Both the position numbers and the translations under genes were made by a program. Below are positions 24,293-64,000 of a stretch of 64,000 bases of DNA, in pieces. The DNA comes from an uncultured Bacteroidales bacterium. GTDB taxonomy: Bacteria; Bacteroidota; Bacteroidia; Bacteroidales; Paludibacteraceae. Numbering within the stretch: the stretch's first letter is position 1; every line of letters starts with the position of its first letter. A model generated the notes under the pieces. The model made no database searches, had not been told where the DNA came from, and worked only from the letters and a program-made list of their open reading frames with translations. The stretch spans positions 31,492 through 95,491 of the forward strand of contig CAMKDV010000008.1 of NCBI GenBank assembly GCA_946411385.1, given 5' to 3'.

Positions 24293-27200
24293 TTAGCGTA
24301 CCGTAGTACCGATGATCGAGTAGATCTTGCCGTCACGAACGATATAAACCTGTCCGTCGCGGATGAACTTCTCAACCTGGATTGCATCGTTGTCGGTATT
24401 GATCAGATTAGACGGAATGATGCTTGCGCCCAAGTTCTCAATCGATACGTTCTTGACGCCTAACGGATGCTGAGTACCGGAGCTGGTATCATTTCTCCAT
24501 GTGAAGAGCAGACGATACGTACCGGCATTGCCAAGTTTGATTGTCTTATCCAGCGGAGTCCAAACACTTACGTTAGCAAGCGCGTACTCATCATCGTCAA
24601 GACAGTAAACACCATTGATCTGAGGATCGGAAGTACCAATCGTTCTTTCGCCGATCTTCAATGTGCTACCGCTTACAGAGAGTGCTGCACTTTCCGCTAC
24701 AATCAGCGCACGACCGTAGTCGTAGTAGTACGATGTATACTCACCGTAAGCTTGCCAATCGAACTGAACGCGAACCTCCGTGCTATCGTCAGCTACGCTG
24801 AACTGGCGGTAAATCATCGAACCGGAAGCAGCATTGAGCGTATACTCCCAAGCACTGTTGTTGTTCGAGATATACATTGCAGGCGTCTCTTCCAACGCAC
24901 CGAAGATGAAGTGGTTCGTCTCCGATTCGCCAAGGATAATCCACTTAGCTTGCTCGGAAGCATCGCCCAAGTTCGGGGTGAATGTATTCTCCGGAGCAAT
25001 AGCCTCGGTCATATCCGGCGAGAGAGCTGTACGGAACGAGAAATCTTTGCTTACAGCTTCGGAAACCTCGTTCTCACCGCAGTTAGCAGCAACGCTTACA
25101 CGGAAGTTGTATGCCGTGTTAGCCGTCAGGTTGTTAACACTGACTGTGCGGCTGTTAACCGTAGCGTTGACAAGCTCGGCGTTCTCGTTAGCCAGATCGG
25201 TTACGATTACGTTCCAAGCCTCCTCATCACCATTGCTCTCCCATGTGAAGACAGCCTCGTAAGCCGTTACACTGGCTTTCTCGATGTTCTTAACCTTCTT
25301 GCAGTTAGGAGCAAGCGAAACGTTGATGTCGTCCACATACATCGATGTGCTATAATTACCACCTTCGATGCAGAATGCAATATAGTGGTAGTTAGCCGGA
25401 GCAGAAAGAACAATCTCAGCTTGTGTATACGTGTTGACCTTTTCCAGACTCTGGATAGCTACGAACGTCGACGTATCCGACGGATCAGACATCACACCTA
25501 CCGTGAGGTATCCATAATCGTCTGTTATGGAGCCTTGCTTGTACCAGAATGCAAGTTGCAGGCTGGACAACGGAGCTTCCATACCCGGCAGAACAGCGAA
25601 GCGGCGAGTAGTTGATGAACCACCATACAAGTACAGGCACTTGCTGCCGGCATGTGAACTCGACGAGCTGTTGTATACATACGGATAATCACCACCCAGC
25701 GGGTTAGTCCAGCAATCAGGCAGGTTGCCCGAACCGGCTACCGCACTCTCGAAGTTCTCTGCATAAGGCAGTTCGCTTGCAGGCAACAAGTTGCACGGAG
25801 TCTTAACCGACAGGATTGTGCTTCGCACCTCCGAGTTGCCGTCTTCTGCACCGCACATACCCATCACTTCGAAGCGGAACGCATAAGAGGTGTTCGGGCT
25901 CAGCGTGTCGATTACGAACGGCAGGGCATCAGCTGCTACTACTACCGAGTCAAGCTTGGTCAGACCATTGTAAACCACTACGGAGTAGTTGTCTGCATTG
26001 CCCGTCCAGCTGAACGCAGCGGATGTGGAAGTTACCTCACCTACAGTCACGTCTGAAGGCTTCCGGCAAGAGGGCTGAGCCTTCACAACGATGTCGTCTA
26101 TACCGAGGTAGTAGAACGAACTGCTGGCAGGAGAAGCGCCATAGCGGAATGCTACGCGTGCGCCGGCTGGCACGGTGTTCAGATAAGCTGTAGCCTCATC
26201 AACCCATGTCGTCGAACGCTCGAACGATGCCAGTGAAACGAAGGTCGTCTCATCGGTAATGTCGGTCAGATAACCTACCTCCAGCGGACCGCTATAGTTG
26301 ACGTTTTCATCCTTGTAAGAGAAGGTAATCATTGCATTCGACAGATCCTCAAACTCGGGCAGAATAGCATAACCTGCTTGCTCGTAGTTGTTGCTGAAGA
26401 ACAAGCATTTGCTACCTGTGCGCACATAAGTACTATTGGTACTTACGTAAATGTACGGATATGTGCCGTTGTTGGCATTCAGCAGGTTCCAGCAAAGCGG
26501 AGCTTCAGACGAACTCGAACCGGCAGGCATTCCCTCGAAACTCTCGCTCCACGGCAATGTGCTGATTGCCTCACAGAGCGTCATCAACGACAGATTGCCT
26601 TCCAGAGCTTCAGCCTCGATGTCACCGCACTCAACATAAACCTCTACGTGTAATGTATATGCCGTCGAAGATGTTAGACCGGTAACGGTGTAAACGGTAT
26701 CGCTTACAACCTCATTTTTCAGTTCGGTCTCACCGTTCTTTACTACAACACGCCAGCTGGTTTCGTCGCTGTTAGGCGACCAACCGAAGCTTACGCTTGA
26801 AGTAGTAGACAGGCTGTCAATAGCGTGGAGATTCTTTGCAGGGAAACAGGTCGGAATCTCGCGAACTTTGACATCGTCAATGTACATATATGCATCTCCA
26901 TCACCATAGTTGCTGGTCGCATTGAAGAAGAATTGTACACTCTGTCCGGCATAAGACGTAAGATCAACTATCTCCTCTGTCCAATCACTAATGCTGGTCA
27001 GAGTCGGGATAATTACTTCGCGCTCAGCACCGTTAGCAGAAATTGATACCGAGAAGGCTCCGCCTGTAGCGTTCTTGCACCAGAATACGAATTCAGCAGG
27101 TTCTTGGGGAAGGCTTATGATAGGCGTACTAAGCACATTGGTATTACCACTTGAGTTAGTATATGAGTTGAAGCGCAAGCACTTGCCGGTACGGCCGGTT

Positions 27201-30200
27201 GCATAAACGCTCCACTTCTTCGCGTCGTCCGTAGTTGTTCCCTCATCGTTATTCCAGCAACCAGGAATACCTGAAGTCAATTCATCAAATTTCTCGTTCC
27301 AAGGAAGCGAACTGATCGTCTCGCACAGCGTTGCAGCATTCAATGTAGCTATCAACGTATCGGCTGCCTCATCAGTTGCAGAGCAAAGAGCCAATACCTT
27401 CAAGTTATAATTGTACGACGAGCTGTTTGTCAAACCGCTGATGGTGATCTTCGGCTCGTTAACAACAGCCTCTGTAAAGGTCGCTTCGTCAGCAAGCTTA
27501 TACAGAACCTTGAACGATGCAGCATCTGAAGTCCAACCGAAGCTTACGCTGTTCAGCGTTGCCTCATTCTCCAATACTACGAGATTCGTTGCGCCAAGGC
27601 AAGAAGGAATTTCGTCAACAACAACATTATCGATTACTGCATAACCGTACGACGTACCACCGGCAAACTTGATAGCTACATAGTGATATCCGTCGCCAAC
27701 TGTATTGAGCAACTTCTCGTAGGCTGTATACGTAGATACTTGATCCAATGTATCCAAAGCAAGGAATGTCGTAGCATCAGCCGGATCAGTCATTACACCT
27801 ACAATAAATGAAGGATAACTTGCTCCGGTATAACTCGAGCCGGTCGCTTTGTACTGGAAGCGGATACGCAAATCGCTCAACGGGTCAGCTATTTCCGGTA
27901 AAGCTACAATACGTACAGATTCACTTGTACCGCCGGAGAAATACAACGATCTAGCTCCCTCGTAAGCATTCGTAGTAGAGTTGGAAATGTACGGATAACT
28001 ATCACCACCTTCTACATACGACCAGCATATAGGCAGAGTACCTGTTCCGTAATCCATATCCTCAAAGCCCATGCTATATGGAGCATGCGCTGCTACGCAC
28101 TCCGTGGCAACATAGCCGCCTACCTTCAGCGTGTCACTCGTGATGCCCTCACCGCAGATTCCTACGAGCTCCAAATAGATCTCATACTCGGTCGACGGAG
28201 TCAGGTTCGGTATAGTGAAGAGCGTATCGGCAAGCGAGGTATTGGAAGCAAGCTCAACCATCGAATCGGTGGCAAGCACGTTCATTACCTTCACACTATA
28301 TGTTTCATGAGTCGGAGCCCATCTGAGTACGATGCTATCCGGACCAACAGAATGAATGTAAATATCCGATGAAACATTATTGCACAATCGCTTCGTAATC
28401 GACAGATTATCCACAACAGCAGATAGTGAATCCGCACCGGTAGAACTGTCATTCATCCATCCGAAGCAGAGCTTGTACGTACCTGCCTGCTCCAGAGCCA
28501 CATTCAAGTTGGCACTTTGCCATTCTTTTGACAAATAGAAGAAAATGCTATTTTTCAGTTCGTTTTCGAACAGAATATATCCGTTTCCGGCTGCTTCCGC
28601 AACTGTTGTCGATCTCGTAACAGTCATGGTACCGACAGCACTGCTATTCGTATTCGCTGATTTCGGGGTAACATTGTCAGGAACAAGCATTACAATCATA
28701 CCGTCATACGAACTTTCGCCAGCGCCTCTCCAGTCAAATGCAATCTTGTATTCAGCATCAGCATCGTCGAAGATAAACGAGCGATAAACCCATGAGAACT
28801 GAGCAGTTCCCTTGTCATACTGATACGTCGTTCCTTCATCCTTACTGATGTACAGACCTTTCGTGCTACCCTCGCCATGATGCCCGGCAGCGCCGATTAC
28901 CCACTCGTTGGTGCTTGCGTTGGCAAATGACCACTTAGCGTTGTCATCTTCAACCTCAAAGCCGGTCGCATACGGAAGTTCTGTCGGCTCTTTAGGAGTA
29001 ACGAATGCGAACGAAGCTTCGAAAATCTCGTCACTCTCATTGCCTTCACCACATACGGCGGTAATAGCTACATCTACGGTATCTACCCAGTTCTCCTCAA
29101 AACCTTCAATCAGGTATTCAGGTACACCTTCTATCTCGATTTCGCTCTCGCCGAAATCACCGGAAGTTGTAGCAAAGTCAAGTTTCCACTTCGTTTCCTC
29201 ACCGCCGGCTGCCCAAGCAATCTTGATTGCGTGACTGCCTACGCTGTCCAGACGGGCTGACGAAACAGGCACACAACTCGGAGCGGGACGAAGAGTAATG
29301 TCGTCCACGTAAATGGAGTTAGGACCATAGGCCGCAACAAGGATATAAATCTCATCACGGAAACCGGCAAGCTTCTTGCGGAACTCAAGCCAATCGGTGC
29401 TTAAGCTCTTTGCAACACCAAGCAAGGTGGCACCTTCAAGCGAAGGAAGCGTGTTAATATAGAACTCTACAGAATCTGCATTACTATGGCTGGAGGCCTC
29501 GCGAACAAATGCAGAAATCTCATAATCCTCCGGCAAAATGATTTGCGGAGAAACAAGTACCGTAGCTTTGCCTGTTGCAGCGGAAGCATAGATAGCCATA
29601 TTGCCGTTATGCTTGTACGTCGAGCTGGTTGTCCAACCGCTCACTGCACCGTTCGGGCAAATCGTATCCCAGCAAGGCAACGTATGCAGCTTCAGACCAC
29701 TGGTATATTCCTCGAAGTCACAATGCAATGTGTCATTCGGGAAGTTGGCAATTGCCTCGCAAGCGGTATTGAACGAGAATTTACCTGTGAAAGGCTCACT
29801 GCTGTCTGTCTCGCTGCATACCTTTGTAATGGTAACATCCAGATTCCAATAAGCGGTAGCTTGTGTCAAACCGCTGATAAGCAAAGTCGTGTCACCTTCT
29901 ACCAGTTCATTGGCCAATACCGTCTCACCGTTCTTTATAAGCACTTGGTAGTCGGCTACAGCAGCCGTATCGTTCCAAGCAATAAGAGCAGATGTCGTGG
30001 TCGTTTCTTTTGCATATACGCTCAACGGAGGCCAGCATGTGGGAATCCGGCGGATGCGGATATCATCAAAGTAAGTGGCTGAACCATAGTAGCTCTCACC
30101 TACCATCCAGATGTAAACCGTTCCGGACAGCGAAATCGGGAAACGGTATTCATACCAACCGCTTGACGTCTCAGCTCCCATCAAAGTGCTTGATACACCG

Positions 30201-31489
30201 TAATGACGTGCAGCCAAACCGATTTCTGTAGCGGTCGAGGCATCAAAAGTAGCGGAGTTGCTGATATAGAAGCGTGCTCCTTCACCATTTGTACCTGATC
30301 CGTTACGATAAATCCAGAATACTACTTCATACGCATTGGCTTCAGGAATTACCACAGCAGGGAATCCTAACAACGTCTTACATACGGAAGTGGAACTACC
30401 CTTATCCGGTAAGCAAAGCGAAGCCGAGCCGGTATGATAATATGTGGTATTTGCCGACCACAAACGAGTAGAATTCGAACCGGCTGAAAGGATAACTTCG
30501 TTTACCCAGCACGTAGGCAACGTGTTGGTTGTGGGATTAGATGCAGCCGTAAATCCTTCGCTTGTCTCAAATCCATAGACTACAGGAAAGGTAGTAATAG
30601 CATCACAAGATGTGGCAAAGTTTAATGTACCTATACGGGTGGTAGATTCGCCACCATCACAAACGTGCGTTACCTCAACTGATAGCGAATATACAGTAGC
30701 CGTAGTAAGTCCGGTTAGGGTATAGGACGGCATGTTTACCGTCTCGTTGTTAACGAGTACTTCGTCACCGTTCTTTACGAGTAGCGTCCAGGAAGTCTCG
30801 TTGTCTGCACTTGCCGTCCACGAGAAAGAAGCGGTAGTATTTGCTACATCACCGAGCGTGATATTGCCCGGCCTGCCACAACTTAACACAGCGGGCGCAT
30901 ACGTAAACGTAACCTTAGGAACGAACGTCGCTGTTGTACCGCTCGCTGCTGTTTGGAATGTGGTGTGATCGTCTCTTGAGCCGTTCTTGTATACACTTGC
31001 TCCGGAAGTTCCGTACCAAGATAAAGACGGGCAGTTTCCTACTGCAATTTCCAAAAACTCTATCATCAAGTTACCGCCTTGATAACTGAACGGACTCGCA
31101 AACGTTATGTTCCATTCAGAATTAGCAACAGTGATCGAACCGGTATAAACCACCGTCGCACCATCGCGGCTGATAAAATTTGAGGAAGCTGCTGTTTCCG
31201 TTACTTCTTTCAAATATACCTCCCACGTTCCCGTAAGGCTCTGACTGGAGGAACTTGAATAGAATTTCATAGCAGAAATCGTACCACCTGCCATGTCCTC
31301 CAAATCGGAAGCAGGCACTACGAACTGACTACGAGTGCCATAATCGCCATAGAAGGCATAAGCCGGCACATACGAATTTGTCGTTGTTCCATCATTCACT
31401 GTGAGCTCATCTGCATTCACCGACATCGGCAAAGCCGTCAGCAAAGCAAACAGGCAACACGTGAACCATGTGTAAAAATGTTTACTCAT
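24293..31489 (-). CDS. Giant modular exported surface protein (8 Cys-bracketed Fn3-like modules alternating with roughly 180-aa jelly-roll-like modules) with conserved C-terminal motif
   Basis: 2398 aa with a signal peptide. Eight occurrences of the pattern C-x-x-P/V...TS(A/V)xF(S/G)W...(T)GLT..T.Y...V...CG....S......T.C. C-terminus KFIRDGQVYIVRDGKIYSIIGTTVR. Domain family names are tentative. Confidence 0.7.
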   Translation of the reverse strand: MSKHFYTWFTCCLFALLTALPMSVNADELTVNDGTTTNSYVPAYAFYGDYGTRSQFVVPASDLEDMAGGTISAMKFYSSSSSQSLTGTWEVYLKEVTETAASSNFISRDGATVVYTGSITVANSEWNITFASPFSYQGGNLMIEFLEIAVGNCPSLSWYGTSGASVYKNGSRDDHTTFQTAASGTTATFVPKVTFTYAPAVLSCGRPGNITLGDVANTTASFSWTASADNETSWTLLVKNGDEVLVNNETVNMPSYTLTGLTTATVYSLSVEVTHVCDGGESTTRIGTLNFATSCDAITTFPVVYGFETSEGFTAASNPTTNTLPTCWVNEVILSAGSNSTRLWSANTTYYHTGSASLCLPDKGSSTSVCKTLLGFPAVVIPEANAYEVVFWIYRNGSGTNGEGARFYISNSATFDASTATEIGLAARHYGVSSTLMGAETSSGWYEYRFPISLSGTVYIWMVGESYYGSATYFDDIRIRRIPTCWPPLSVYAKETTTTSALIAWNDTAAVADYQVLIKNGETVLANELVEGDTTLLISGLTQATAYWNLDVTITKVCSETDSSEPFTGKFSFNTACEAIANFPNDTLHCDFEEYTSGLKLHTLPCWDTICPNGAVSGWTTSSTYKHNGNMAIYASAATGKATVLVSPQIILPEDYEISAFVREASSHSNADSVEFYINTLPSLEGATLLGVAKSLSTDWLEFRKKLAGFRDEIYILVAAYGPNSIYVDDITLRPAPSCVPVSSARLDSVGSHAIKIAWAAGGEETKWKLDFATTSGDFGESEIEIEGVPEYLIEGFEENWVDTVDVAITAVCGEGNESDEIFEASFAFVTPKEPTELPYATGFEVEDDNAKWSFANASTNEWVIGAAGHHGEGSTKGLYISKDEGTTYQYDKGTAQFSWVYRSFIFDDADAEYKIAFDWRGAGESSYDGMIVMLVPDNVTPKSANTNSSAVGTMTVTRSTTVAEAAGNGYILFENELKNSIFFYLSKEWQSANLNVALEQAGTYKLCFGWMNDSSTGADSLSAVVDNLSITKRLCNNVSSDIYIHSVGPDSIVLRWAPTHETYSVKVMNVLATDSMVELASNTSLADTLFTIPNLTPSTEYEIYLELVGICGEGITSDTLKVGGYVATECVAAHAPYSMGFEDMDYGTGTLPICWSYVEGGDSYPYISNSTTNAYEGARSLYFSGGTSESVRIVALPEIADPLSDLRIRFQYKATGSSYTGASYPSFIVGVMTDPADATTFLALDTLDQVSTYTAYEKLLNTVGDGYHYVAIKFAGGTSYGYAVIDNVVVDEIPSCLGATNLVVLENEATLNSVSFGWTSDAASFKVLYKLADEATFTEAVVNEPKITISGLTNSSSYNYNLKVLALCSATDEAADTLIATLNAATLCETISSLPWNEKFDELTSGIPGCWNNDEGTTTDDAKKWSVYATGRTGKCLRFNSYTNSSGNTNVLSTPIISLPQEPAEFVFWCKNATGGAFSVSISANGAEREVIIPTLTSISDWTEEIVDLTSYAGQSVQFFFNATSNYGDGDAYMYIDDVKVREIPTCFPAKNLHAIDSLSTTSSVSFGWSPNSDETSWRVVVKNGETELKNEVVSDTVYTVTGLTSSTAYTLHVEVYVECGDIEAEALEGNLSLMTLCEAISTLPWSESFEGMPAGSSSSEAPLCWNLLNANNGTYPYIYVSTNSTYVRTGSKCLFFSNNYEQAGYAILPEFEDLSNAMITFSYKDENVNYSGPLEVGYLTDITDETTFVSLASFERSTTWVDEATAYLNTVPAGARVAFRYGASPASSSFYYLGIDDIVVKAQPSCRKPSDVTVGEVTSTSAAFSWTGNADNYSVVVYNGLTKLDSVVVAADALPFVIDTLSPNTSYAFRFEVMGMCGAEDGNSEVRSTILSVKTPCNLLPASELPYAENFESAVAGSGNLPDCWTNPLGGDYPYVYNSSSSSHAGSKCLYLYGGSSTTRRFAVLPGMEAPLSSLQLAFWYKQGSITDDYGYLTVGVMSDPSDTSTFVAIQSLEKVNTYTQAEIVLSAPANYHYIAFCIEGGNYSTSMYVDDINVSLAPNCKKVKNIEKASVTAYEAVFTWESNGDEEAWNVIVTDLANENAELVNATVNSRTVSVNNLTANTAYNFRVSVAANCGENEVSEAVSKDFSFRTALSPDMTEAIAPENTFTPNLGDASEQAKWIILGESETNHFIFGALEETPAMYISNNNSAWEYTLNAASGSMIYRQFSVADDSTEVRVQFDWQAYGEYTSYYYDYGRALIVAESAALSVSGSTLKIGERTIGTSDPQINGVYCLDDDEYALANVSVWTPLDKTIKLGNAGTYRLLFTWRNDTSSGTQHPLGVKNVSIENLGASIIPSNLINTDNDAIQVEKFIRDGQVYIVRDGKIYSIIGTTVR

Positions 31490-35692: not shown

Positions 35693-35696
35693 CCGC

Positions 35697-35898
35697 ATCG
35701 ACCAATCTTGGGCGATAAAAAAAAGCATCGACCAATCTTGGGCGATTAAAAAAAGCATCGACCAATCTTGGGCGATAAAAAAAGCATCGACCAATCTTGG
35801 GCGATAAAAAAAAGCATCGACCAATCTTGGGCGATAAAAAAGGATCGACCAATCTTGGGCGATAAAAAGGGATCGACCAATCTTGGGCGATAAAAAAA
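35697..35898 (+). repeat. Seven-copy tandem array of a REP-related hairpin plus A-tract (unit GCATCGACCAATCTTGGGCGAT-A7-8, period 28-30 bp)
   Basis: Hairpins at 35697, 35727, 35757, 35786, 35816, 35844 and 35872 (each 20 nt). Core CCAATCTTGG is identical to the RAYT-flanking REPs. The array starts 5 nt after the OmpA-family stop and ends 38 nt before the pckA ATG. Confidence 0.9.
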
Positions 35899-56353: not shown

Positions 56354-58375
56354 TTAACGGCTGATTTGGATATATTTCTTTCCGCCACGGATGACTATGC
56401 CGTTATAGCCGGCATCTACGGGTCGGCCGAGCAAGTCGAATGCCTGACCGGACAAGTCATTCTCGTTCGTCAGGCGTATATCCTCGGGATCGGTAGGCAG
56501 AATGCCGTCGTAATCCAGTGTGAGGCTTTGCAGTTTGGGCTGTCCCCACTCCATGACGTTATGTACACGCAAGATATAGTTGCCTGTGGGCACGTTGGTC
56601 AGATCCCAATGCTCCTCGTAAGCAATGCTGCCTTCGTTCCATGTAGCGGCTGTGGTATACTCATCAACGGTCGTGCGGTTGGCATCAAGCAGTTCGAGTT
56701 GCCACGAGTGTCCCGTGCCACCGCCCGTAGCCATGTTCTCGGTTATGATATATTCGCCCGGGTAACGCAGCGTCACTTCCCACTCTGCCCAGCGCGAAGT
56801 GTTCGTGCCGTCCTCAGGGCCGAAATCGAAGTACGAGGTGTTGTACCACGTCATATCCTCGCTATAGGCAGTCACGTTCTCCTTGTTGAGCGTAGCCGGC
56901 AATACAATGCCTTCCTCGGGCTCGGGAGGCGTCTGACCACCGCTGACCGTGACGGAAGCACCGAGATTGTTCATACCGGTCGTAGCATCCCACACGCCCG
57001 TATTGGCAAAGCGTATAGCATAGCGCGCATCGGAAGCCAGTGAGGCATAAGCGTCAGGCATGTACAGGTACAGTTCGTACGTGCCGGAAGGAATAGTAGC
57101 CGGTATGGTGATTTGCTCGTTGATGGTAGTCAGCGCTCCGTTGGGCAACCATCGGCGCGGATCGGAACTGAGGCGTACGGAGTATTTCTTATTGCCATTC
57201 TTGAGTACGATATATGCGTGGCGCTCGTTATATAGCGGAGCATAACCTACGTTGCGCAGACTGATGTTGACCGATAGTTTGCCACCTGCTGCCACCTGAT
57301 CGCCAAAAGTAGCGCTCTGCAGTTGGTAGCGATAGCCCATCCGGCGGTTGAGTTCGTCGAACGTACCGTTGCGGCGCCACATGTCGGTCGTTTGCGTAGC
57401 ATAACCGCTCTGGATGAACGTCCAATGCAGACGACTCATCTCGGCTGTCGTCTTTTCGTAGGTAGCCCAGCGTTTGGCTTTGGTGGTATCGGTGATGTCG
57501 GTTTCGCCGCCTATGGGCACGTATAGCGTCTCCTGTGCCAGCCAGGGTTTCTCGGTAGCTGTATCGGAATAAGTACCCATATTGTCGTAGTCGTAGAGGA
57601 AAGCATCGTTATGCTGTCCCAGACGTGCACGGGCTGTACCGGTGAACGCCTCGGTAGCGGTAAGCGGATTGCTGTCACCTACGTAGCCTTTCTTGAAGAG
57701 CGGCGTACGCAACTGGATCATTCTGTTCTGCGGCACAGCTGCCAAAAGCGCATCCACCACGGCACGACGGCTGCTGTTCATCGTGCTCTGACGGTTGCCG
57801 TAATTATCCGTATAGTACCATTCACCCCACGCTCCTACGATGCCCGCCTGGAAGACGAAGATCACATCCGTATTGGCTGCCCAGTGCGAACTGTACTGGC
57901 TGATATGGCTTTGCGCTATCTCAAGCGGAGCATCTTTGGCAGACTCCACACCGCTCTTCTCGTACGTAGTATTTGTGTAGGAGAAGCGCAGAATGGCTTT
58001 CAGACCTTTGTTGCGCAGTACTTGCATATCCTCGTCAAAGGCATTGAGGATAGCGTCAGGCAGTGTGGCCGTGTTGCGGAAATTATCCAGATAGTAATGG
58101 ACGAGCACGATAGATATGCCATCCCTGCTGATATGCGCATCCAGTGTGCTCTCTTGCCCCTTGACGCAATACGGGCTGCTCGTGCTCAACTTCTTTTCGA
58201 GCATCGTGATAAATCCCCGTTCTGGATTGGAGAAGATGGTGTTGTCGTCAGCGGTGTAGGTGACCGTGGTTGCCGACATGACGGCACTCATGCATAAGGC
58301 TGTCGTTATGCACGCAACGTGAGCCATAAGGCTGTGAATAAACGATTTCATATTATTTGTTGTTTTGTTTTGCAT
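56354..58375 (-). CDS. Exported glycoside-hydrolase-like protein (DUF4874/DUF4832-type TIM-barrel region plus C-terminal beta-sandwich domains)
   Basis: 673 aa. NPERGF near the N-terminus and GAWGEWYYTDNYG. C-terminal end LLGRPVDAGYNGIVIRGGKKYIQISR resembles a classical T9SS-type tail. Alternative ATG at 58351 (MKSFIHSL...) lies 1 nt after the upstream stop. DUF names are from memory. Confidence 0.6.
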   Translation of the reverse strand: MQNKTTNNMKSFIHSLMAHVACITTALCMSAVMSATTVTYTADDNTIFSNPERGFITMLEKKLSTSSPYCVKGQESTLDAHISRDGISIVLVHYYLDNFRNTATLPDAILNAFDEDMQVLRNKGLKAILRFSYTNTTYEKSGVESAKDAPLEIAQSHISQYSSHWAANTDVIFVFQAGIVGAWGEWYYTDNYGNRQSTMNSSRRAVVDALLAAVPQNRMIQLRTPLFKKGYVGDSNPLTATEAFTGTARARLGQHNDAFLYDYDNMGTYSDTATEKPWLAQETLYVPIGGETDITDTTKAKRWATYEKTTAEMSRLHWTFIQSGYATQTTDMWRRNGTFDELNRRMGYRYQLQSATFGDQVAAGGKLSVNISLRNVGYAPLYNERHAYIVLKNGNKKYSVRLSSDPRRWLPNGALTTINEQITIPATIPSGTYELYLYMPDAYASLASDARYAIRFANTGVWDATTGMNNLGASVTVSGGQTPPEPEEGIVLPATLNKENVTAYSEDMTWYNTSYFDFGPEDGTNTSRWAEWEVTLRYPGEYIITENMATGGGTGHSWQLELLDANRTTVDEYTTAATWNEGSIAYEEHWDLTNVPTGNYILRVHNVMEWGQPKLQSLTLDYDGILPTDPEDIRLTNENDLSGQAFDLLGRPVDAGYNGIVIRGGKKYIQISR

Positions 58376-59705
58376 CCAGTTGTATTTCCTGTGTAGATAG
58401 GATATGTTTGCATTCTACGCGTACGTTGTCCGGCTTGGCGGCAGCTTTTATCACGAATGTTTTCTCTTCGCCCGGTAGTAGTCCGCGCAGCGATTCGTTG
58501 GCTTGTACGTCGCCTACGGTAATATATGCGTCTCTGTACAACGGCGCTACGCCGGTGTTGGTAACGGTGATACGGGTGGTTGTGCCGCTCGTCTCGCACG
58601 AGATGACCTCAAACTTGTATCCTGAAGCCAAACCTGCTTCCGTCACACGATTAGGCGTGAAATAATTGCCGTCAGGCGCGTCGTTGCAGATAATGAATGA
58701 CATGTGGTATTTGGCAGCAGCCTGTTCCCACGTTACGCCGTACATGCCGGCGGGATTGAGGAAATTGCGCTGGTCGAAACTGCTGTAATAACTGATCTCT
58801 CCACCGCAAACACCTTTTTTCCATTTGTCCAACCCGCTCCACTGCCAGCATTGTTCGTTCCATCCGTCGCCCTGCGAGATGTCGTGTTGTTTGTGCATGA
58901 ACGAGTCGTCAAACAATCCGCAACTCCAGCGCTTCAATACTTCCTCTCCGCCATACACATCATCTCCGGCATCTATGCTTACCAGCCATGGTATAGCCAT
59001 CCCGTCCTCCAATGCCTTAAACAACGATCGCTGGTACTCTTTGGTCGGGAAATTCTTGCCGAAAACGACCGATGTTCCGTAGGTGTGGTATTCTCCCCAA
59101 TGACCGAATCCTACCTCTACGAAGGCTATCCGTGCATCGTTGTTGTAGCGCTCTGCAACATCGGCATAGAACTGCTTGACAAACCATTGCAGTTCGCTAT
59201 GGCTCCAATCGGGATACCATGTAGGTCCGTCACCGCCCGGGTTGGCAGCGTAGGTCTCGTTGTAATCAGCCATCGCCCGTATATAGTCCGGCACGTAGGT
59301 TGCACCTCGCTCGCTGATACAATTCTCGCGGTTCGACGGATAGCACAGCGGAAAACGCACTACCATCTGATGTCCGCGCGATGAAGCAGCCTGTAGTTTG
59401 TTTTCGAGGTAGGTCCAGTCGTATTGCAACTTGCCGTTGGCCTTACCCGTCACCAGTTTGCACGGCGGGATATATGCGAACTCCAGCGAGATACATTGGC
59501 CGTGCGTGTTGTTCATTGCTGCCGCCTGGTCGTTCCAGAGCACCATGCCCGTCATCGGTTGCAGGTGAGTAATGCGGTTCGTCAGGGTTACTTTTTCGTA
59601 GTTTTCGTCATCACTGTTCTTGCATGAGGCAAAAAGCATCATGCCGCTCACCGAGAGGGCTATCATCAGCCCGAGACTGAGCCATTTTCTCTTGTTTTGT
59701 TTCAT
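58353..59705 (-). CDS. Lipoprotein, glycoside-hydrolase-like (DUF4832-type)
   Basis: 450 aa. Lipobox LFASC, GFGHWGEYH block, C-terminal GYKFEV...VTNTGVAPLYRDAY. Paralogous in layout to 56354-58375. Confidence 0.6.
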   Translation of the reverse strand: MKQNKRKWLSLGLMIALSVSGMMLFASCKNSDDENYEKVTLTNRITHLQPMTGMVLWNDQAAAMNNTHGQCISLEFAYIPPCKLVTGKANGKLQYDWTYLENKLQAASSRGHQMVVRFPLCYPSNRENCISERGATYVPDYIRAMADYNETYAANPGGDGPTWYPDWSHSELQWFVKQFYADVAERYNNDARIAFVEVGFGHWGEYHTYGTSVVFGKNFPTKEYQRSLFKALEDGMAIPWLVSIDAGDDVYGGEEVLKRWSCGLFDDSFMHKQHDISQGDGWNEQCWQWSGLDKWKKGVCGGEISYYSSFDQRNFLNPAGMYGVTWEQAAAKYHMSFIICNDAPDGNYFTPNRVTEAGLASGYKFEVISCETSGTTTRITVTNTGVAPLYRDAYITVGDVQANESLRGLLPGEEKTFVIKAAAKPDNVRVECKHILSTQEIQLDAKQNNK

Positions 59706-59771
59706 AGTGGTATGTTTTTTCTTTGTTTTGTAATATCTGTTATTCGTTTCGTTGTCTGATTGACTTTAATG

Positions 59772-60233
59772 CTAAAAAACAATCTCCATGCCTGTTTTTT
59801 GGGGCTGCATGCCCATGGTTTGGTAGAAGCGCAAGGCTGCTTCGTTGCCTTCCCACACATTCAGGGTGATGTTGTGGCAACCGATAGAGCGGGCATAGTT
59901 GCGAACGTGCTCAAACAAGGCTTTGCCTACATGTTTGCCGCGAGCCGATTCATCTACGCAGATATCGTCGATATACAGCGTTTTGCCGTCTTGCAGCAGC
60001 CTGTCGCCGGTTGTCTCGGTTATCTGGCAGAAAGCGTAACCTTGTACCGTGCCGCTATCGTATACAAAGATAGGCTTGGAGGCATTGTGCAGCAGTTGTA
60101 CCAGATCGTCGGCGCTGTACTTAGTGGTATTGGGTTTGAACAAATCCGGGCGCAAATGGTGATGCACCATATTCACTTGGTGCAACAGATCAATGATGCG
60201 AGGTATATCCTCAATGGCAGCTTGGCGAATCAT
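59772..60233 (-). CDS. GNAT-family N-acetyltransferase
   Basis: 153 aa. Acetyl-CoA binding block ICVDESARGKHVGKALFE. Confidence 0.8.
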   Translation of the reverse strand: MIRQAAIEDIPRIIDLLHQVNMVHHHLRPDLFKPNTTKYSADDLVQLLHNASKPIFVYDSGTVQGYAFCQITETTGDRLLQDGKTLYIDDICVDESARGKHVGKALFEHVRNYARSIGCHNITLNVWEGNEAALRFYQTMGMQPQKTGMEIVF

Positions 60234-60264
60234 AACTTATGCGTTGGTTAATAGTTGTCTATAT

Positions 60265-60741
60265 TTATGGGTTGGTTAACAGTTGTACTATTTGTTCCAG
60301 ATAAAGCCGGTCAGTCTCGTCGAAGGCGGCAAAGTCGGTGCTGTCGATGTCCAATACGGCAATGATGTTACCGCCGGAGAAGACCGGCACAACTATCTCG
60401 CTGTTCGAGGCAGAGGAGCAGGCTATATGTCCGGCAAACTCATGGACGTTCGGCACGATGACTGTCTCTGCACGTTGCCACGCCGTACCGCACACCCCGC
60501 GTCCGAAAGGAATATGCATGCAGGCTACCGGTCCCTGAAACGGACCAAGTACCAATTCCTTTCCGGCAGGTTGGGCATCAGGACTGTCTATTACGCGGTA
60601 GAAGCCTGTCCACCAGAAGCCGAAAGCCTCGTGTAGCGCAGCACAGATGTTCGCCATCTTGGCAATCATGTCCTTTTCTCCCGCCATCAGCGCCTCTATC
60701 TGCGGTAGCAGGGTTTGGTATGTCTCGGATTTGCTTGACAT
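60265..60741 (-). CDS. GAF-domain protein (free-Met-R-sulfoxide reductase / YebR-like)
   Basis: 158 aa. WTGFYRV...LVLGPFQG..AC..I..GRGVCG...VPNVHEFAGHIACS pattern of the small GAF family. Confidence 0.7.
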   Translation of the reverse strand: MSSKSETYQTLLPQIEALMAGEKDMIAKMANICAALHEAFGFWWTGFYRVIDSPDAQPAGKELVLGPFQGPVACMHIPFGRGVCGTAWQRAETVIVPNVHEFAGHIACSSASNSEIVVPVFSGGNIIAVLDIDSTDFAAFDETDRLYLEQIVQLLTNP

Positions 60742-60747
60742 CAGATT

Positions 60748-60785
60748 ATGTGGGTTATAAATTGCAATATCATTTCACTTTTGCG
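60748..60785. repeat. 38-bp direct repeat, copy A (ATGTGGGTTATAAATTGCAATATCATTTCACTTTTGCG)
   Basis: Identical to 62800-62837. In minus-strand sense it is a relic abiEii 3' end (...SEMILQFITHII-TGA) whose stop shares one nt with the GAF gene ATG. Confidence 0.95.
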
Positions 60786-60796
60786 GGGTTTGGTAA

Positions 60797-61903
60797 CTAA
60801 TGGTGATATTTCATGTCTTTGTTATATGTGAAGTGAAACGATGATTTGTCTTTGGAGAACATTTGTCGTTCTAATGCCAAAACAAGTTGAATGTCGAAAT
60901 AGACATATGTCTTTCTGCCATTCTTTGTAATAACGTCAAACATATCATGACCGGAAGTTAGTAATGTTTGCATTCCTACCTGCAAATCCATCACATAATT
61001 CATCAGAGCATATTCATCGGCTACATTTACCACATGAATGGCTGTTTCTTTAGAATCACCATCACCTGTCGCGAATAAAGCTTGGCATAGCTGATGGTAC
61101 ATCCAAATATATCTATTAAATGTAATAGTATCATTTGTTTCGTGAGCAGCAGACATTCTAAAGAGGATGGCGTTAATATCTACGGGTGCTGAAGACAAAT
61201 AATCATCAAGATAAGATGCCAAGCCTTGGTGTCCCTTCTTGTAATAGATGCCATTCAATTCGGTCATATTCAAAGCGCCTGCCAGATAGCCGTAGAATGC
61301 TGAACCATAATAAACGGCTTGTATGTCTTGCATAGATAATGTGGAGTCTGCCACACGGAAACGTTGTAATAGCGCTTCATAGCTTTCCTTACCTATCGTT
61401 TGTATGGATTCGTAATCGGGAATCTGAAATTCACGTTTAGGATACTTGATTTTTCTGACAGGCAAAGCCATACATTTGATGAAACTCATCGTAGTCCACA
61501 CTTTTTCTTTGGAGAAATATAGTCCCCATGCCTCCAATTTGTCATACATCTCTGCCGACCAATAATAGCCGATAGGCTTTTCTTCCCAATTGCCTTGACA
61601 ATCTTTGAATGCTGCAGCCGGAAGAGTAATAGAGTCTCCATTCACACCAATGATGGTATAACCGCTACCATTCCATTTCCATGTGCAGTTATCCACCAAT
61701 TCCTGAAAATGATGCATCCCCGGCATTTCTCTACCGGAGAATTTGTCCACTGTTTCGTTAAAAGTATAAACTCCCGGTTCGTTTTGGTCAGCCCAAAGAG
61801 TGCCACTTGGTAATCCGAGATCAACGTAATGCGTTTCGTCTGCAATAGATGTTGAACAGCACAACAGGAATGCAGCCACAAACAAAAGACTTCTCATTTT
61901 CAT
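60797..61903 (-). CDS. Exported two-domain hypothetical protein (DUF1566/FISUMP-like N-domain, DUF4919-like C-domain), low-GC cassette gene 2
   Basis: 368 aa with a signal peptide. YVDLGLPSGTLWADQN motif. Visibly AT-richer than the flanks. Domain names are from memory. Confidence 0.55.
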   Translation of the reverse strand: MKMRSLLFVAAFLLCCSTSIADETHYVDLGLPSGTLWADQNEPGVYTFNETVDKFSGREMPGMHHFQELVDNCTWKWNGSGYTIIGVNGDSITLPAAAFKDCQGNWEEKPIGYYWSAEMYDKLEAWGLYFSKEKVWTTMSFIKCMALPVRKIKYPKREFQIPDYESIQTIGKESYEALLQRFRVADSTLSMQDIQAVYYGSAFYGYLAGALNMTELNGIYYKKGHQGLASYLDDYLSSAPVDINAILFRMSAAHETNDTITFNRYIWMYHQLCQALFATGDGDSKETAIHVVNVADEYALMNYVMDLQVGMQTLLTSGHDMFDVITKNGRKTYVYFDIQLVLALERQMFSKDKSSFHFTYNKDMKYHH

Positions 61904-61959
61904 AATTTTACACTTTTATAGGTTAGTTCCTTATTTTTTTATCAAAACCATCCACAATT

Positions 61960-62793
61960 TTATTTCCACCAGTTGATGTCGGCTTCGTAGATAGAGTCGT
62001 AATATGCGCATTCCGGATCACCTATCCAACCATGACGATCCCTATCAATATATGTCTTCCAACCATTATCGTAGAACTCATCATAAGGGGAGAAGTCTCC
62101 GCATCCGCCATCTAACCCATTGGATTCGGGGATACGAAAGTCGCCCCAGTTGCAAGTAAGTGTGTCACTGGTATCAAGATAAATCCACTTGCCGGTGTAT
62201 TGGTTGTTGCAATAAGCATCACCGGCATAACTGATGGCGTCGTAAAAAATGCTATCGTTGTGAACAAGGTAATCAAAATACGCCTTTCCTACTATATCAG
62301 CGACATGCTTGTCGTTATGCTTCGCTTGCAGAGTATAATGGGCATAGAGCGTGCCGGAACCGCTAATCTTTATATAGCTATCGTCACTAAATAATGAATC
62401 ACTAAGCGGAACGACCGAATCGACTACCAGATTGCCATTGATGGTACATATCTCGTCTTGGCAGCGCGTTCTACCTTCTATTCGATAAGTATAATCATTC
62501 ACTTTATACACGGTGTCATAATGGATATAGAAGCGTTGAAAATCCGCACCTCTATAGCCTAACGGTTCGGGAAGACAAAACCACCCGTCTTCCATCGGTT
62601 CATTTCCGTAATCTTCTGTCCAACTTTTCTTGAACGAATCACTCCACCACGAATAGACGTCATCCGTAGGAACAGAGTCCGGGAGAATGAGCGAATAGGA
62701 CAGGTCATTGGAAAGGATTCCACGTGGCGTAGAGGTTTTATGGCAAGCCGTCAGGCAAAGACCGACGAGGAGGATGAGGATGAGACGGTTCAT
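61960..62793 (-). CDS. Hypothetical lipoprotein, low-GC cassette gene 1
   Basis: 277 aa. Lipobox LCLTAC. Trp/Tyr/Asp-rich. No family recognised. Confidence 0.55.
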   Translation of the reverse strand: MNRLILILLVGLCLTACHKTSTPRGILSNDLSYSLILPDSVPTDDVYSWWSDSFKKSWTEDYGNEPMEDGWFCLPEPLGYRGADFQRFYIHYDTVYKVNDYTYRIEGRTRCQDEICTINGNLVVDSVVPLSDSLFSDDSYIKISGSGTLYAHYTLQAKHNDKHVADIVGKAYFDYLVHNDSIFYDAISYAGDAYCNNQYTGKWIYLDTSDTLTCNWGDFRIPESNGLDGGCGDFSPYDEFYDNGWKTYIDRDRHGWIGDPECAYYDSIYEADINWWK

Positions 62794-63569
62794 AGGGCGA
62801 TGTGGGTTATAAATTGCAATATCATTTCACTTTTGCGTGTGTCGAAGAGTAGATGCTCAAAGTCGCGCTGTTTAAGTTGCATATTCGTCTTTGCGACAAT
62901 CTCGGTTAGGGCTGCAGTTAGTTGCTCTTTGTCGGCGATACCTTTTTGCTGTTGGAGGAAAGTATAGTCAGGTTCCGTGCGCTGCATAAGGAAGAGCACA
63001 TCGTAGAAATCACGACCTTTCTGACGCGTAAGTAGAGCACAGAGTTTCATGGACAGAAGTACGCTGAGCGGAGGAACAGGAACAGGAAACGAGAATCCGT
63101 TTCGCTGAACAACAGCCATCTCCCGCGGATAGTCGATACCTTGATCTTGCGCCTCGATCTTCATCAGGAAACGTTCCTCGCGATGGCCTGTCAGTTGGAG
63201 GTCGAACAGCAGTTCCGGAAAATATACGTTGCTGCGGAAAGCGGTAAGACGGGCATTCTCTTTATTGCGCAATTCTGCGTTGAGGCCTTGAAGTTGCAGG
63301 TACTTGACTAACTCGTCCGACATTTGCCGGAACTCATCTTCGCTCAATCCTTTGCAATCGAAATCCAAATCTTCAGAGAAACGGTCGATGCCTTGAATAA
63401 GTCGCAAGTTGGTGCCACCGATGAAGATCAATTTCGCAGCATAAGGCGAACGGGCAATCCATTCCAAAGCCAACAACTCCACATATTCTTTGACGATATG
63501 CTTTTGGAAGTTGGCATTCTGCGCTATGTATGGCGGGTAGAAGCCGCGTATATATTCGAGGTCTATCAT
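62790..63569 (-). CDS. AbiEii/AbiGii-family nucleotidyltransferase toxin (type IV TA, DUF1814-like)
   Basis: 259 aa. GGTNLRLIQGIDRFSEDLDFD nucleotidyltransferase motif. Overlaps the upstream antitoxin gene by 4 nt. Confidence 0.8.
   Translation of the reverse strand: MIDLEYIRGFYPPYIAQNANFQKHIVKEYVELLALEWIARSPYAAKLIFIGGTNLRLIQGIDRFSEDLDFDCKGLSEDEFRQMSDELVKYLQLQGLNAELRNKENARLTAFRSNVYFPELLFDLQLTGHREERFLMKIEAQDQGIDYPREMAVVQRNGFSFPVPVPPLSVLLSMKLCALLTRQKGRDFYDVLFLMQRTEPDYTFLQQQKGIADKEQLTAALTEIVAKTNMQLKQRDFEHLLFDTRKSEMILQFITHIAL
62800..62837. repeat. 38-bp direct repeat, copy B (inside the 3' end of abiEii)
   Basis: Identical to 60748-60785. Encodes ...SEMILQFITHI of the intact AbiEii ORF. Confidence 0.95.
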
Positions 63570-64000
63570 AAGTCGTAGGCTTTGAGTAATAACTGTATTC
63601 GCTTGGTTAGTATCGGACTATTAATCCGTTCCGTGTACTCTATCAGTCGTTCTTTGTTCAACTCGTCGCGCATCCAATCTTCGTCGAAGCGCAGTTCACG
63701 CATCTCGTCAATCGTCGAATATTGCGGATAGAGGTAGAGCAGGTCGATGATGGCCTTTTCGGGAGTAGCCATCATATATTGCTTGCCGTCGCGCATTGTT
63801 TTTGGCTCGAAGCCCCAGAAGAGTCGCGGACGAATGGTCTGGTAACTGAACTGACCGAAGGCATTTTCATAACGGCAAGTCTTTTGTGTCGTTACACTCG
63901 TCATTTCGATGACAGATTCCGGAATGATGCCATAGAACGATAGCGTGGTGTGCAGACTAATGTACGAGGGTGCACACATCTTCCCGGCTACATATCGCGC
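63566..64000 (-). CDS. AbiEi-family antitoxin (C-terminal part; N-terminus beyond the window)
   Basis: The frame stays open upstream of the track ATG (63979) to the window edge. PSYISLHTTLSFYGIIPESVIEMTSVTT...FSYQTIRPRLFWGF is typical of the AbiEi C-terminal domain. Confidence 0.75.
   Translation of the reverse strand, partial: ARYVAGKMCAPSYISLHTTLSFYGIIPESVIEMTSVTTQKTCRYENAFGQFSYQTIRPRLFWGFEPKTMRDGKQYMMATPEKAIIDLLYLYPQYSTIDEMRELRFDEDWMRDELNKERLIEYTERINSPILTKRIQLLLKAYDL

Follow-up and report, generated by a model that had tools for sequence, protein, structure and literature searches.

How two genes for exported proteins came to lie between a toxin gene and a GAF-domain gene, framed by a perfect 38-bp direct repeat, is the question raised by one locus in the genome of an uncultured rumen Paludibacteraceae bacterium. 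The window analyzed here is a 64-kb stretch of that genome, and its right edge at 64000 cuts the antitoxin gene abiEi. On the minus strand, the genes run in the order abiEi, abiEii, a lipoprotein gene, a DUF4919 gene, the GAF-domain gene (GAF), a GNAT gene and two DUF4832 genes. The best explanation is that a hypervariable array of genes for secreted proteins follows abiEi–abiEii directly in rumen Paludibacteraceae and that this locus is its head. We give an even chance to the mechanism that we favor, in which cassettes turn over through a homology anchor in abiEi/abiEii and an illegitimate distal join, as in the orphan arrays of type VI secretion system (T6SS), Rhs and contact-dependent inhibition (CDI) loci. 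What began as a curiosity of raw sequence is now a documented insertion/deletion polymorphism with a recovered empty site.

The 38-mer ATGTGGGTTATAAATTGCAATATCATTTCACTTTTGCG occurs at 60748–60785 (copy A) and 62800–62837 (copy B), both on the minus strand, and the match is exact, as a first-pass annotation of the window had reported. There are two copies only. Allowing up to 3 mismatches adds no further copy in the window, two matches were not reached in any of 100 dinucleotide shuffles, and in a self-BLAST of the 64 kb this was the sole dispersed repeat, besides one local tandem repeat. Identity stops at both edges without a single base of extension on either side. The reading frames assigned to the two copies also proved right. 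Copy B covers the last 13 codons of abiEii minus the final AL-stop; it encodes the AbiEii end RKSEMILQFITHIAL followed by the stop codon, and the abiEii TGA overlaps the next ATG as ATGA. The toxin gene has its functional 3′ end here, and the same stretch is the leader of the first cassette gene. Copy A does not code: it is what remains of an abiEii 3′ end, and it lies immediately before the start region of GAF (AATCTG-ATG). Read in the abiEii frame it gives ...THII-TGA, with one A in common with the GAF ATG at 60741.

Strain L001 carries the empty site that the first-pass annotation had set as a test of its reconstruction. The nearest relative of the window AbiEii in the protein collection, P0001, comes from this strain (98% identity, 258 aa) and ends in ...ITHII. 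The L001 gene order is a PDC-S01-type ATPase, hipBA and DUF218, all within the 5 kb upstream, then abiEi, abiEii and directly GAF, GNAT and DUF4832. By BLASTN, L001 4542–5742 corresponds to window 64000–62800 with 97.9% identity, and L001 5705–6225 corresponds to window 60785–60265 with 96.4% identity. The two alignments overlap by exactly 38 bp (L001 5705–5742), a single stretch that aligns to both window copies, and at the position of copy A strain L001 has a real abiEii end. This 38-mer differs from that of the window at four positions (ACA/ATG, AGA/CAA) and is therefore not an assembly collapse of the window repeats. A state like that of L001 must once have existed, since in copy A the end of an abiEii gene is joined to the GAF leader. 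The segment missing from L001 is 2,014 bp long (60786–62799, minus strand) and consists, in order, of CGCCCT, the lipoprotein gene, a 56-nt spacer, the DUF4919 gene, a third-gene remnant and a 10-nt filler.

The inserted segment is compositionally foreign. A windowed GC profile gave 0.36–0.43 within it, about 0.52 on the GAF side and 0.46–0.49 on the abiEii side, in agreement with an earlier impression from reading that the cassette is AT-richer than its flanks. Third-position GC (GC3) of the DUF4919 gene is 0.393 (z = −2.67), the lowest among 44 open reading frames (ORFs), and that of the lipoprotein gene is 0.486 (z = −1.49; window mean 0.603, sd 0.078). Cassette-type genes are consistently AT-richer than host core genes in every species examined.

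The two junctions of the segment differ in character. The left junction, E-CGCCCT-ATG, where E denotes the conserved abiEii 3′ end, equals the outgroup junctions base for base through the stop and start codons; the L001 junction does not. Since the copy B junction matches the outgroups and the abiEii–GAF junction of L001 is unique, the end ...IAL-stop is native and ...II-stop is a fusion product. Of the two, the abiEii-to-lipoprotein junction (...IAL-stop/ATGA) is thus old and shared across the family, and the abiEii-to-GAF junction is derived. At the right (distal) junction, the cassette ends in TCACCATTAGT, after which comes the 10-nt filler TACCAAACCC (60786–60795, minus strand), abutting copy A, so that TCACCATTAGTTACCAAACCC precedes the abiEii relic. 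The filler is identical to GAF codons 10–13, 75 nt downstream (60711–60720, minus strand), the sole other occurrence in the window and its presumed template. None of 100 shuffles gave two or more copies of TACCAAACCC, and with the next 3 nt added the match is 12/13. All filled strains have it twice, at the junction and in GAF; L001 and L029 carry the GAF copy alone. The distal junction is thus without homology, apart from this filler and the 38-mer, beyond which neither side is homologous.

Short filler templated from nearby sequence is a trace of microhomology or template-switch joining and is not produced by recombinase strand exchange. From its structure we infer that the right junction is illegitimate, rather than of an att or integron type. 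The earlier suggestion of att-like or integron-like capture is not supported, given the templated filler and the absence of a hairpin in the repeat. Folding with RNA parameters found no hairpin or significant fold in E or in either junction context (z = −1.01, +1.01 and +0.21 versus shuffles), and no inverted repeats flank the cassette. E matched no Rfam family, a scan for sigma-70 promoters and terminators was negative, and the Bacteroidetes-type promoter motif TAnnTTTG is absent from E and from the 56-nt intergenic spacer.

The meaning of the 38-mer becomes clearer across species. A tolerant E pattern was scanned against one genome per species and gave nine loci, eight in rumen Paludibacteraceae/Bacteroidales metagenome-assembled genomes (MAGs) and one spurious. 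The intact abiEi–abiEii pairs of L018, L019, L021, L024 and L030 terminate in a 63-nt form, E_c: CTCTTCGACACCCGCAAAAGTGAAACAATATTGAGATTTATAGAAACAATAGCCCTATGAAAC. E_c shows 0–1 differences between loci, and the preceding 314 nt of abiEii differ by 11–20% (P 6e-7 to 7e-4). Past the shared ATGAAAC the downstream genes are unrelated, with at least six different signal-peptide genes that always start in the ATGA overlap. The same near-invariant end of abiEi–abiEii therefore stands before at least six different genes (L018, L019/L024, L020/L021, L022/L007, L017, L030 and the window). The window 38-mer, E_w, is homologous to E_c and is the diverged version of E in the window species. The first-pass annotation had proposed the duplication or recombination of a 38-bp site. 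The 38-mer is no neutral target that was duplicated but part of this near-invariant element, and in L030 the corresponding "repeats" match at 28/38 positions. The direct repeat is thus read as anchor plus relic rather than as a target-site duplication. Why the 63-nt anchor tail varies so little between species is the most interesting puzzle of the locus; this invariance is a concrete, testable anomaly and a marker for finding such arrays in metagenomes.

Genes displaced from abiEii keep a fragment of its 3′ end in front of them, as copy A before GAF illustrates. E relics of 81 nt stand before displaced genes in L020 and L022, of about 47 nt behind a Bacteroidetes-type promoter in L007–L017 and L025, of 38 nt in the window type, and of 12 nt, twice, in L029; tails of 15–17 nt precede internal array genes. 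Relatives of the lipoprotein gene with at least 90% amino acid identity occur in other rumen MAG species. Their context (mdh ... lipoprotein, short DUF4919, 288-aa gene, ATPase, gyrB) is stable and without abiEii, and the 50 or so nucleotides that precede the lipoprotein ATG are an abiEii 3′-end relic (RKSETILRFIETIAL, then stop) with the same ATGA overlap, behind a Bacteroidetes-type promoter. Array genes are co-directional and tightly packed, and the stop/start overlap falls at the same base in all species. Two shorter motifs were considered as recombination sites and rejected. The tail AACCCACAT cannot be a general recombination core, being confined to the E copies of the window species and two L029 junctions. 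The start contexts RCCCT-ATGAAAC and YCCCT-ATGAAAC are also found behind ordinary promoters, so they are a gene-family feature and no site. In two species, at L020 3677–3757 and L022 880–966, abiEii is deleted save for its last 27 codons and abiEi and the downstream array are kept, so the toxin was lost and the junction retained.

Conspecific strains show how the locus varies. The right junction of the window (DUF4919 end, TTACCAAACCC, E_w, GAF) recurs in L002, L026, L027, L028 and L031, and L031 and L002 are of the window type. Copy A is identical in L003, L026–L028, L030 and L031 and has 2 mismatches in L002. L030 has a foreign abiEii allele (78% nucleotide identity) with an E_c end, then an extra 273-aa lipoprotein gene, the lipoprotein gene, DUF4919, E_w and GAF. 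L003 joins the 3′ end of hipA to the extra lipoprotein gene and a 90%-identical DUF4919 gene, followed by 216 nt of a truncated third gene and the window right junction; its head was replaced, with the joint within the first 14 nt of a signal-peptide gene. L029 has the lipoprotein and DUF4919 genes and three more (446 aa, 257 aa and a 1,332-aa A2M-like gene), an array of at least five genes, with just the 12-mer TCTAACCCACAT before GAF and the same 12-mer before the 257-aa gene. The right junction is thus common to strains with differing left sides and contents (L003, L030, L029, L031). It is present in at least six independent assemblies from different samples, and L030 spans the whole structure, which rules out an assembly artefact. 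Filled alleles came from samples SRR16020796, SRR28378877, SRR16020810 and SRR32473518, and the empty allele of L001 came from SRR17889462.

Later changes can be read from the same comparison. Relative to L003 and L031, a 217-nt deletion at a TAA microhomology removed the third-gene remnant from the window. The subsequent loss of one A extended the DUF4919 ORF by 3 codons (YHH) taken from the tail of the lost third gene. The unfused 365-aa form, ending in ...KDMK-stop, is preserved in L031 and L003. These later deletions and the mixed left sides mean that the structure was built in several steps and not by one clean cassette insertion. The first-pass reconstruction, in which about 2 kb of foreign DNA split an abiEii–GAF junction, is upheld by L001 and by the copy A relic as far as the split is concerned; a single clean event is not supported, given the shared right junction and the later deletions.

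The mechanism that we favor would assemble these observations as follows. In the ancestor of the window strain, abiEii would have abutted GAF directly. Incoming DNA with the order abiEii-E-lipoprotein-DUF4919-gene 3, whatever its route of entry, would have crossed over within abiEii/E on the homologous left side, and its far end would have been joined, by microhomology or template switch, to the resident abiEii at a point 38 nt before the stop codon, gaining the 10-nt filler copied from GAF. The outcome would be an intact abiEii with its normal E-lipoprotein junction (copy B), the cassette, and a 38-nt resident relic before GAF (copy A). GAF would be a resident gene displaced from abiEii that keeps the abiEii relic as its leader. 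Trimming of gene 3 would have followed, by the 217-nt deletion at TAA and then the 1-nt deletion. Ordinary recombination or slippage between copies A and B could later remove the cassette precisely and so restore an allele like that of L001. E relics may be kept because the A-rich, unstructured E serves as the translation-initiation leader of the following gene. An anchor combined with an illegitimate join would explain the family-wide left junction, the relic lengths that differ between events, the right junction shared by strains with different left sides, the non-identical "repeats" of L030 and the lack of a recombinase. If so, an abortive-infection toxin gene of uncultured rumen Paludibacteraceae would have a second role: it would be the fixed anchor of a rapidly changing array of exported-protein genes, for which its last bases would serve as leader.

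Several findings weigh against this mechanism. The nucleotide-level invariance of E_c exceeds what the coding of 17 residues needs. The L029 block formed by g4 and the A2M-like gene and the window block formed by the lipoprotein and DUF4919 genes are each bounded on both sides by the E tail AACCCACAT. No donor for the third-gene remnant (query L003 2151–2400) or for the sequence left of the filler was present among the loci compared. Within the window the copies match at every position, and six strains share one unchanged copy A although their neighboring genes have a synonymous divergence (dS) of about 0.03–0.25. This is more conservation than a neutral relic should show and needs purifying selection through a leader function, gene conversion or a sequence-specific process. 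Moreover, the four bases that separate the window E from the L001 E are a derived patch in both copies, which calls for one more step: the bases were either substituted before the insertion or converted.

Three of these observations, namely the identity of the copies, the invariance of E_c and the two blocks bounded by one E tail, keep a trans-acting, site-specific mechanism alive. E, or the tail AACCCACAT / GAAACAAT with the RCCCT-ATG start, could be the attachment site of a recombinase encoded elsewhere, and cassettes would then move as units behind abiEii and be expressed from the toxin–antitoxin (TA) operon, in an integron-like manner without a cis integrase or attC hairpins. We consider such capture unlikely. 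It would account for an E_c that is near-invariant across species with both neighbors variable, for variable genes that begin at exactly the same base after E, for two different blocks flanked by the same E tail (repeated over 38 nt in the window and over 12 nt in L029), for the perfect identity of the window copies, and for cassette genes that lack a Bacteroidetes-type promoter directly upstream and are co-directional with abiEi–abiEii. However, no recombinase was detected near any of about 15 loci, and E shows neither an inverted repeat nor a hairpin. The relics measure 81, about 47, 38 and 12 nt, which means that the distal breakpoints are not fixed, and the distal junction holds a templated filler. 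The joints of L003 and L030 fall in signal-peptide coding sequence and not at E, and the RCCCT-ATGAAAC context belongs to the gene family. A stronger form of the proposal, in which the 63-nt abiEii end is a dedicated site where a trans recombinase inserts and excises cassettes, the TA pair is a stabilizing, promoter-providing platform and the 38-bp repeat is attL/attR, seems to us somewhat more doubtful again. If the 63-nt element were a true recombination site, it would define a new cassette-capture system. Campbell-type integration would have a circle with E and the cassette enter by a single RecA-mediated crossover with the resident E, duplicating the shared homology. This would give a direct repeat of the homology length with both flanking genes intact, and direct repeats, once formed, can release such circles again. 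The closure joint of the circle, TACCAAACCC|CGCAAAAG, is nevertheless the same illegitimate joint that still needs explaining; a hypothetical circle would read TTACCAAACCC, the 38-mer and CGCCCTATGAAC across its joint. A length of 38 bp is also near the lower limit for efficient RecA-dependent recombination. A search for circular or alternative contexts of the cassette, a check that the first-pass annotation had called for, found none in genome, metagenome, viral or plasmid collections, and we regard this route as improbable.

The polarity of the change could also be the reverse of the one preferred here. The filled state would then be older in the sampled population, and L001 would be a revertant that lost the cassette when copies B and A recombined or slipped against each other; its empty site would be a scar and not the original target. 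Distances over the right flank resolve three lineages, of which the window has the longest branch (75, 76 and 62 differences in about 2,516 nt), so that under midpoint rooting L001 groups as sister of the filled cluster L026/27/28/30. The dS of the lipoprotein gene between strains, 0.08–0.12, is similar to that of GAF, 0.11–0.13, so the cassette would be about as old as the strains. The L001 E looks like a B-by-A hybrid, its first 30 nt having the cross-species form and its last 8 nt the GAF-adjacent form, and filled alleles outnumber the empty one by about 8 to 1 among the samples found. Yet this rooting, made without an outgroup in a population that recombines, depends on a modest difference in branch length, and the DUF4919 gene, at a dS of 0.03, is less diverged than the flanks. 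L001 has the ancestral bases at all four variable positions of E, which is equally expected of a surviving ancestral allele. An L001-like state is needed earlier in any case, given that copy A is an abiEii end on the GAF leader. We consider reversed polarity unlikely, though somewhat less so than site-specific capture. A transposon-like or casposon/CRISPR-like insertion with a 38-bp target-site duplication left by widely staggered cuts, or an assembly artefact at the repeat, would suit a perfect direct repeat immediately flanking an insert. These are very improbable, and effectively refuted already. Neither terminal inverted repeats nor a transposase or Cas1-like gene was found, and 38 bp is far beyond the usual target-duplication lengths of transposons. 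The left junction pre-exists in other species, and the repeat measures 38 bp in the window, is a 28/38 match in L030 and spans 12 bp around another block in L029. As for an artefact, the right junction is in at least six independent assemblies and L001 has a distinct 38-mer of its own.

The first-pass annotation had stated that the locus lacks an integrase, a transposase and inverted repeats in cis, and the searches agree. At the window locus, Pfam detected no recombinase in the eight genes at 56354–63979 (about 8 kb). Relatives were covered by Pfam scans of L001, L005, L007–L016, L029, L030 and 10 further neighbors. No integrase, transposase or Cas1-like gene was found in the cassette, the scanned flanks, the 5 kb upstream in L001 or the ORFs examined around seven related loci. 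E has no match in IMG/VR, and the cassette has none in PLSDB.

Homology-facilitated illegitimate recombination (HFIR) is the origin proposed by Kirchberger et al. (2017, PMC5361080), and in work cited there, for the orphan immunity arrays of Vibrio T6SS clusters and the orphan modules of Rhs and CDI systems. The present locus resembles those arrays in its conserved upstream coding anchor, in head addition with older genes pushed downstream, in an illegitimate distal junction without a dedicated recombinase, and in repeats that can later mediate deletion or fusion. Displaced genes in Rhs/CDI orphan modules likewise keep a fragment of the anchor 3′ end. The anchor here, in contrast, is the 3′ end of the AbiEii toxin and not a polymorphic toxin with a swappable C-terminal domain; its last 63 nt are near-invariant across species, and the cargo consists of exported proteins without a detectable toxin or immunity signature. 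Because polymorphic toxins with their immunity proteins are not found among the cargo, the locus works like such arrays and is not a member of them. It is best classed with the displacement arrays that combine an anchor and an illegitimate join, as a variant based on an AbiE toxin gene. If this is true, orphan-array evolution extends to a toxin–antitoxin platform and to cargo other than toxin and immunity genes.

Other systems share part of this architecture. As in integrons, the cassettes lack a Bacteroidetes-type promoter directly upstream, would be added head-first immediately behind a fixed platform and are co-directional with its putative promoter, and older ones are displaced distally, with strain-variable content. 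Unlike integrons, the locus has no cis IntI-type recombinase, which was likewise absent beside every abiEii-headed array scanned. It has no attC hairpin, the cassette ends showing no inverted repeats and no significant fold with RNA parameters, and no RYYYAAC/GTTRRRY cores; its distal boundaries are irregular, one with filler DNA. Integrative elements that use gene 3′ ends also leave the target intact, with a direct repeat of the target gene 3′ end (attL/attR) flanking the insert. The insert here, however, is only 2 kb and has no integrase or excisionase. Its copy of the gene end represents the old junction common to the family and not an attP brought in by the element, the repeats differ from each other in L030, the distal boundary contains filler, and strains share right but not left boundaries. 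The recombinase-associated acquired interbacterial defense (rAID) clusters of gut Bacteroidales, reported by Ross et al. in 2019, reportedly have as their defining features a tyrosine recombinase next to the cluster and immunity genes. They are similar in being low-GC, strain-variable arrays of small genes in Bacteroidales, many encoding exported proteins, in defense-type neighborhoods, but neither a tyrosine recombinase nor immunity genes are detectable here.

The individual genes of the locus, all on the minus strand, were assigned as follows. The antitoxin gene abiEi lies at 63566–64000, where the window end cuts it; it was located by tblastn with the 205-aa AbiEi of L001, a full-length orthologue with a PADLOC E-value of 1.8e-71. 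The ORF listed from 63979 corresponds to an internal ATG start inside abiEi. The toxin gene abiEii (62790–63569, 259 aa; Pfam PF08843 7.7e-21, PADLOC AbiEii 1e-96) overlaps abiEi by 4 nt, and this adjacency marks the two as a likely AbiE type IV toxin–antitoxin/abortive-infection pair. Cassette gene 1 (61960–62793) encodes a 277-aa lipoprotein with an N-terminal signal peptide and the lipobox LTAC, and its ATG is the one that overlaps the abiEii TGA. Cassette gene 2 (60797–61903) encodes a 368-aa exported two-domain protein with a signal peptide and DUF4919 (Pfam 1.7e-20). GAF (60265–60741, 158 aa) matches Pfam GAF_2 at 4e-12, and the GNAT gene, also assigned by Pfam, lies at 59772–60233. Exact look-up of the window GAF, AbiEii and lipoprotein (P0241) sequences found none of them on record. 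A genome scan for a codon-degenerate 38-mer in which the Met and Gln codons peculiar to the window were kept constant gave no match, the pattern being over-specific.

Models of the cassette proteins predict ordered folds. The AlphaFold model of the lipoprotein, which has no Pfam family, is a putative β-barrel with flanking helices (predicted local distance difference test score, pLDDT, 89.9). The DUF4919 protein is modeled with a β-rich N-terminal domain and a helical, TPR-like C-terminal domain (pLDDT 91.0). Its N-terminal domain is related to proteins with PF26707/PF07603, and its C-terminal domain is DUF4919. Neither protein has a fold match in the PDB at E ≤ 1e-3 or a match in PADLOC or NCBIfam, and PADLOC, NCBIfam, Pfam and the PDB fold search gave no toxin or immunity signature for the cassette cargo. 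Relatives of the cassette proteins are often fused to TonB_C domains, in arrays beside PDC-S01-type ATPases. Nothing relevant was found in the literature on DUF4919 or on AbiEii with Bacteroidetes arrays.

An AAA_14/DUF4143 ATPase (PADLOC candidate defense family PDC-S01, 3.3e-90) recurs beside arrays in several species (L001 162–1427, L005 2174–3457, L007 9573–11006, and also L020, L021 and L024). With hipBA and Fic genes, this neighborhood looks like a defense/TA island setting. Within abiEi–abiEii, 11/21 differences between the window and L001 fall in 57 nt (L001 5233–5289, window 63237–63293), most of them derived in L001, a cluster that resembles a small patch of recombination within the toxin gene.

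The GAF–GNAT side of the locus is variable as well. Three strains have three different deletions from within GAF to mid-GNAT, of about 700 bp in L003, 427 bp in L027 and 521 bp in L028. The joints (L003 2473–2502, L027 405–413 and L028 490–497; window equivalent about 60700–59895) each have a 7–9 nt overlap. This pattern suggests that GAF–GNAT is recurrently lost, or that the region is unstable, in cassette-bearing strains. At the GAF/GNAT junction of the window (60237–60292) there is a 28-bp tandem duplication of the GAF 3′ end (60237–60258 versus 60265–60286, 91% identical), which is missing in L001 and L002, where GNAT begins 3–4 nt past GAF. This is another small duplication at a junction of the operon. 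Together with the three microhomology deletions, which arose independently nearby, it marks the lineage as prone to slippage at junctions. GAF of L029 is cut after about codon 41 by unrelated DNA at the contig end (8389–8621), which contains a small ORF on the opposite strand with weak matches to HTH_17/HTH_36 (E about 2.5e-3, below the cut-off); it may be the edge of an integrative element.

Elsewhere in the window, four 408-aa ORFs were considered as copies of an insertion sequence and dismissed, as self-BLAST found their sequences unrelated. A local tandem repeat lies at 35695–35898, with two copies about 89 nt apart that are 95% identical over 118 nt. A 2,398-aa ORF on the minus strand (24293–31489) has a below-average GC3 of 0.506.

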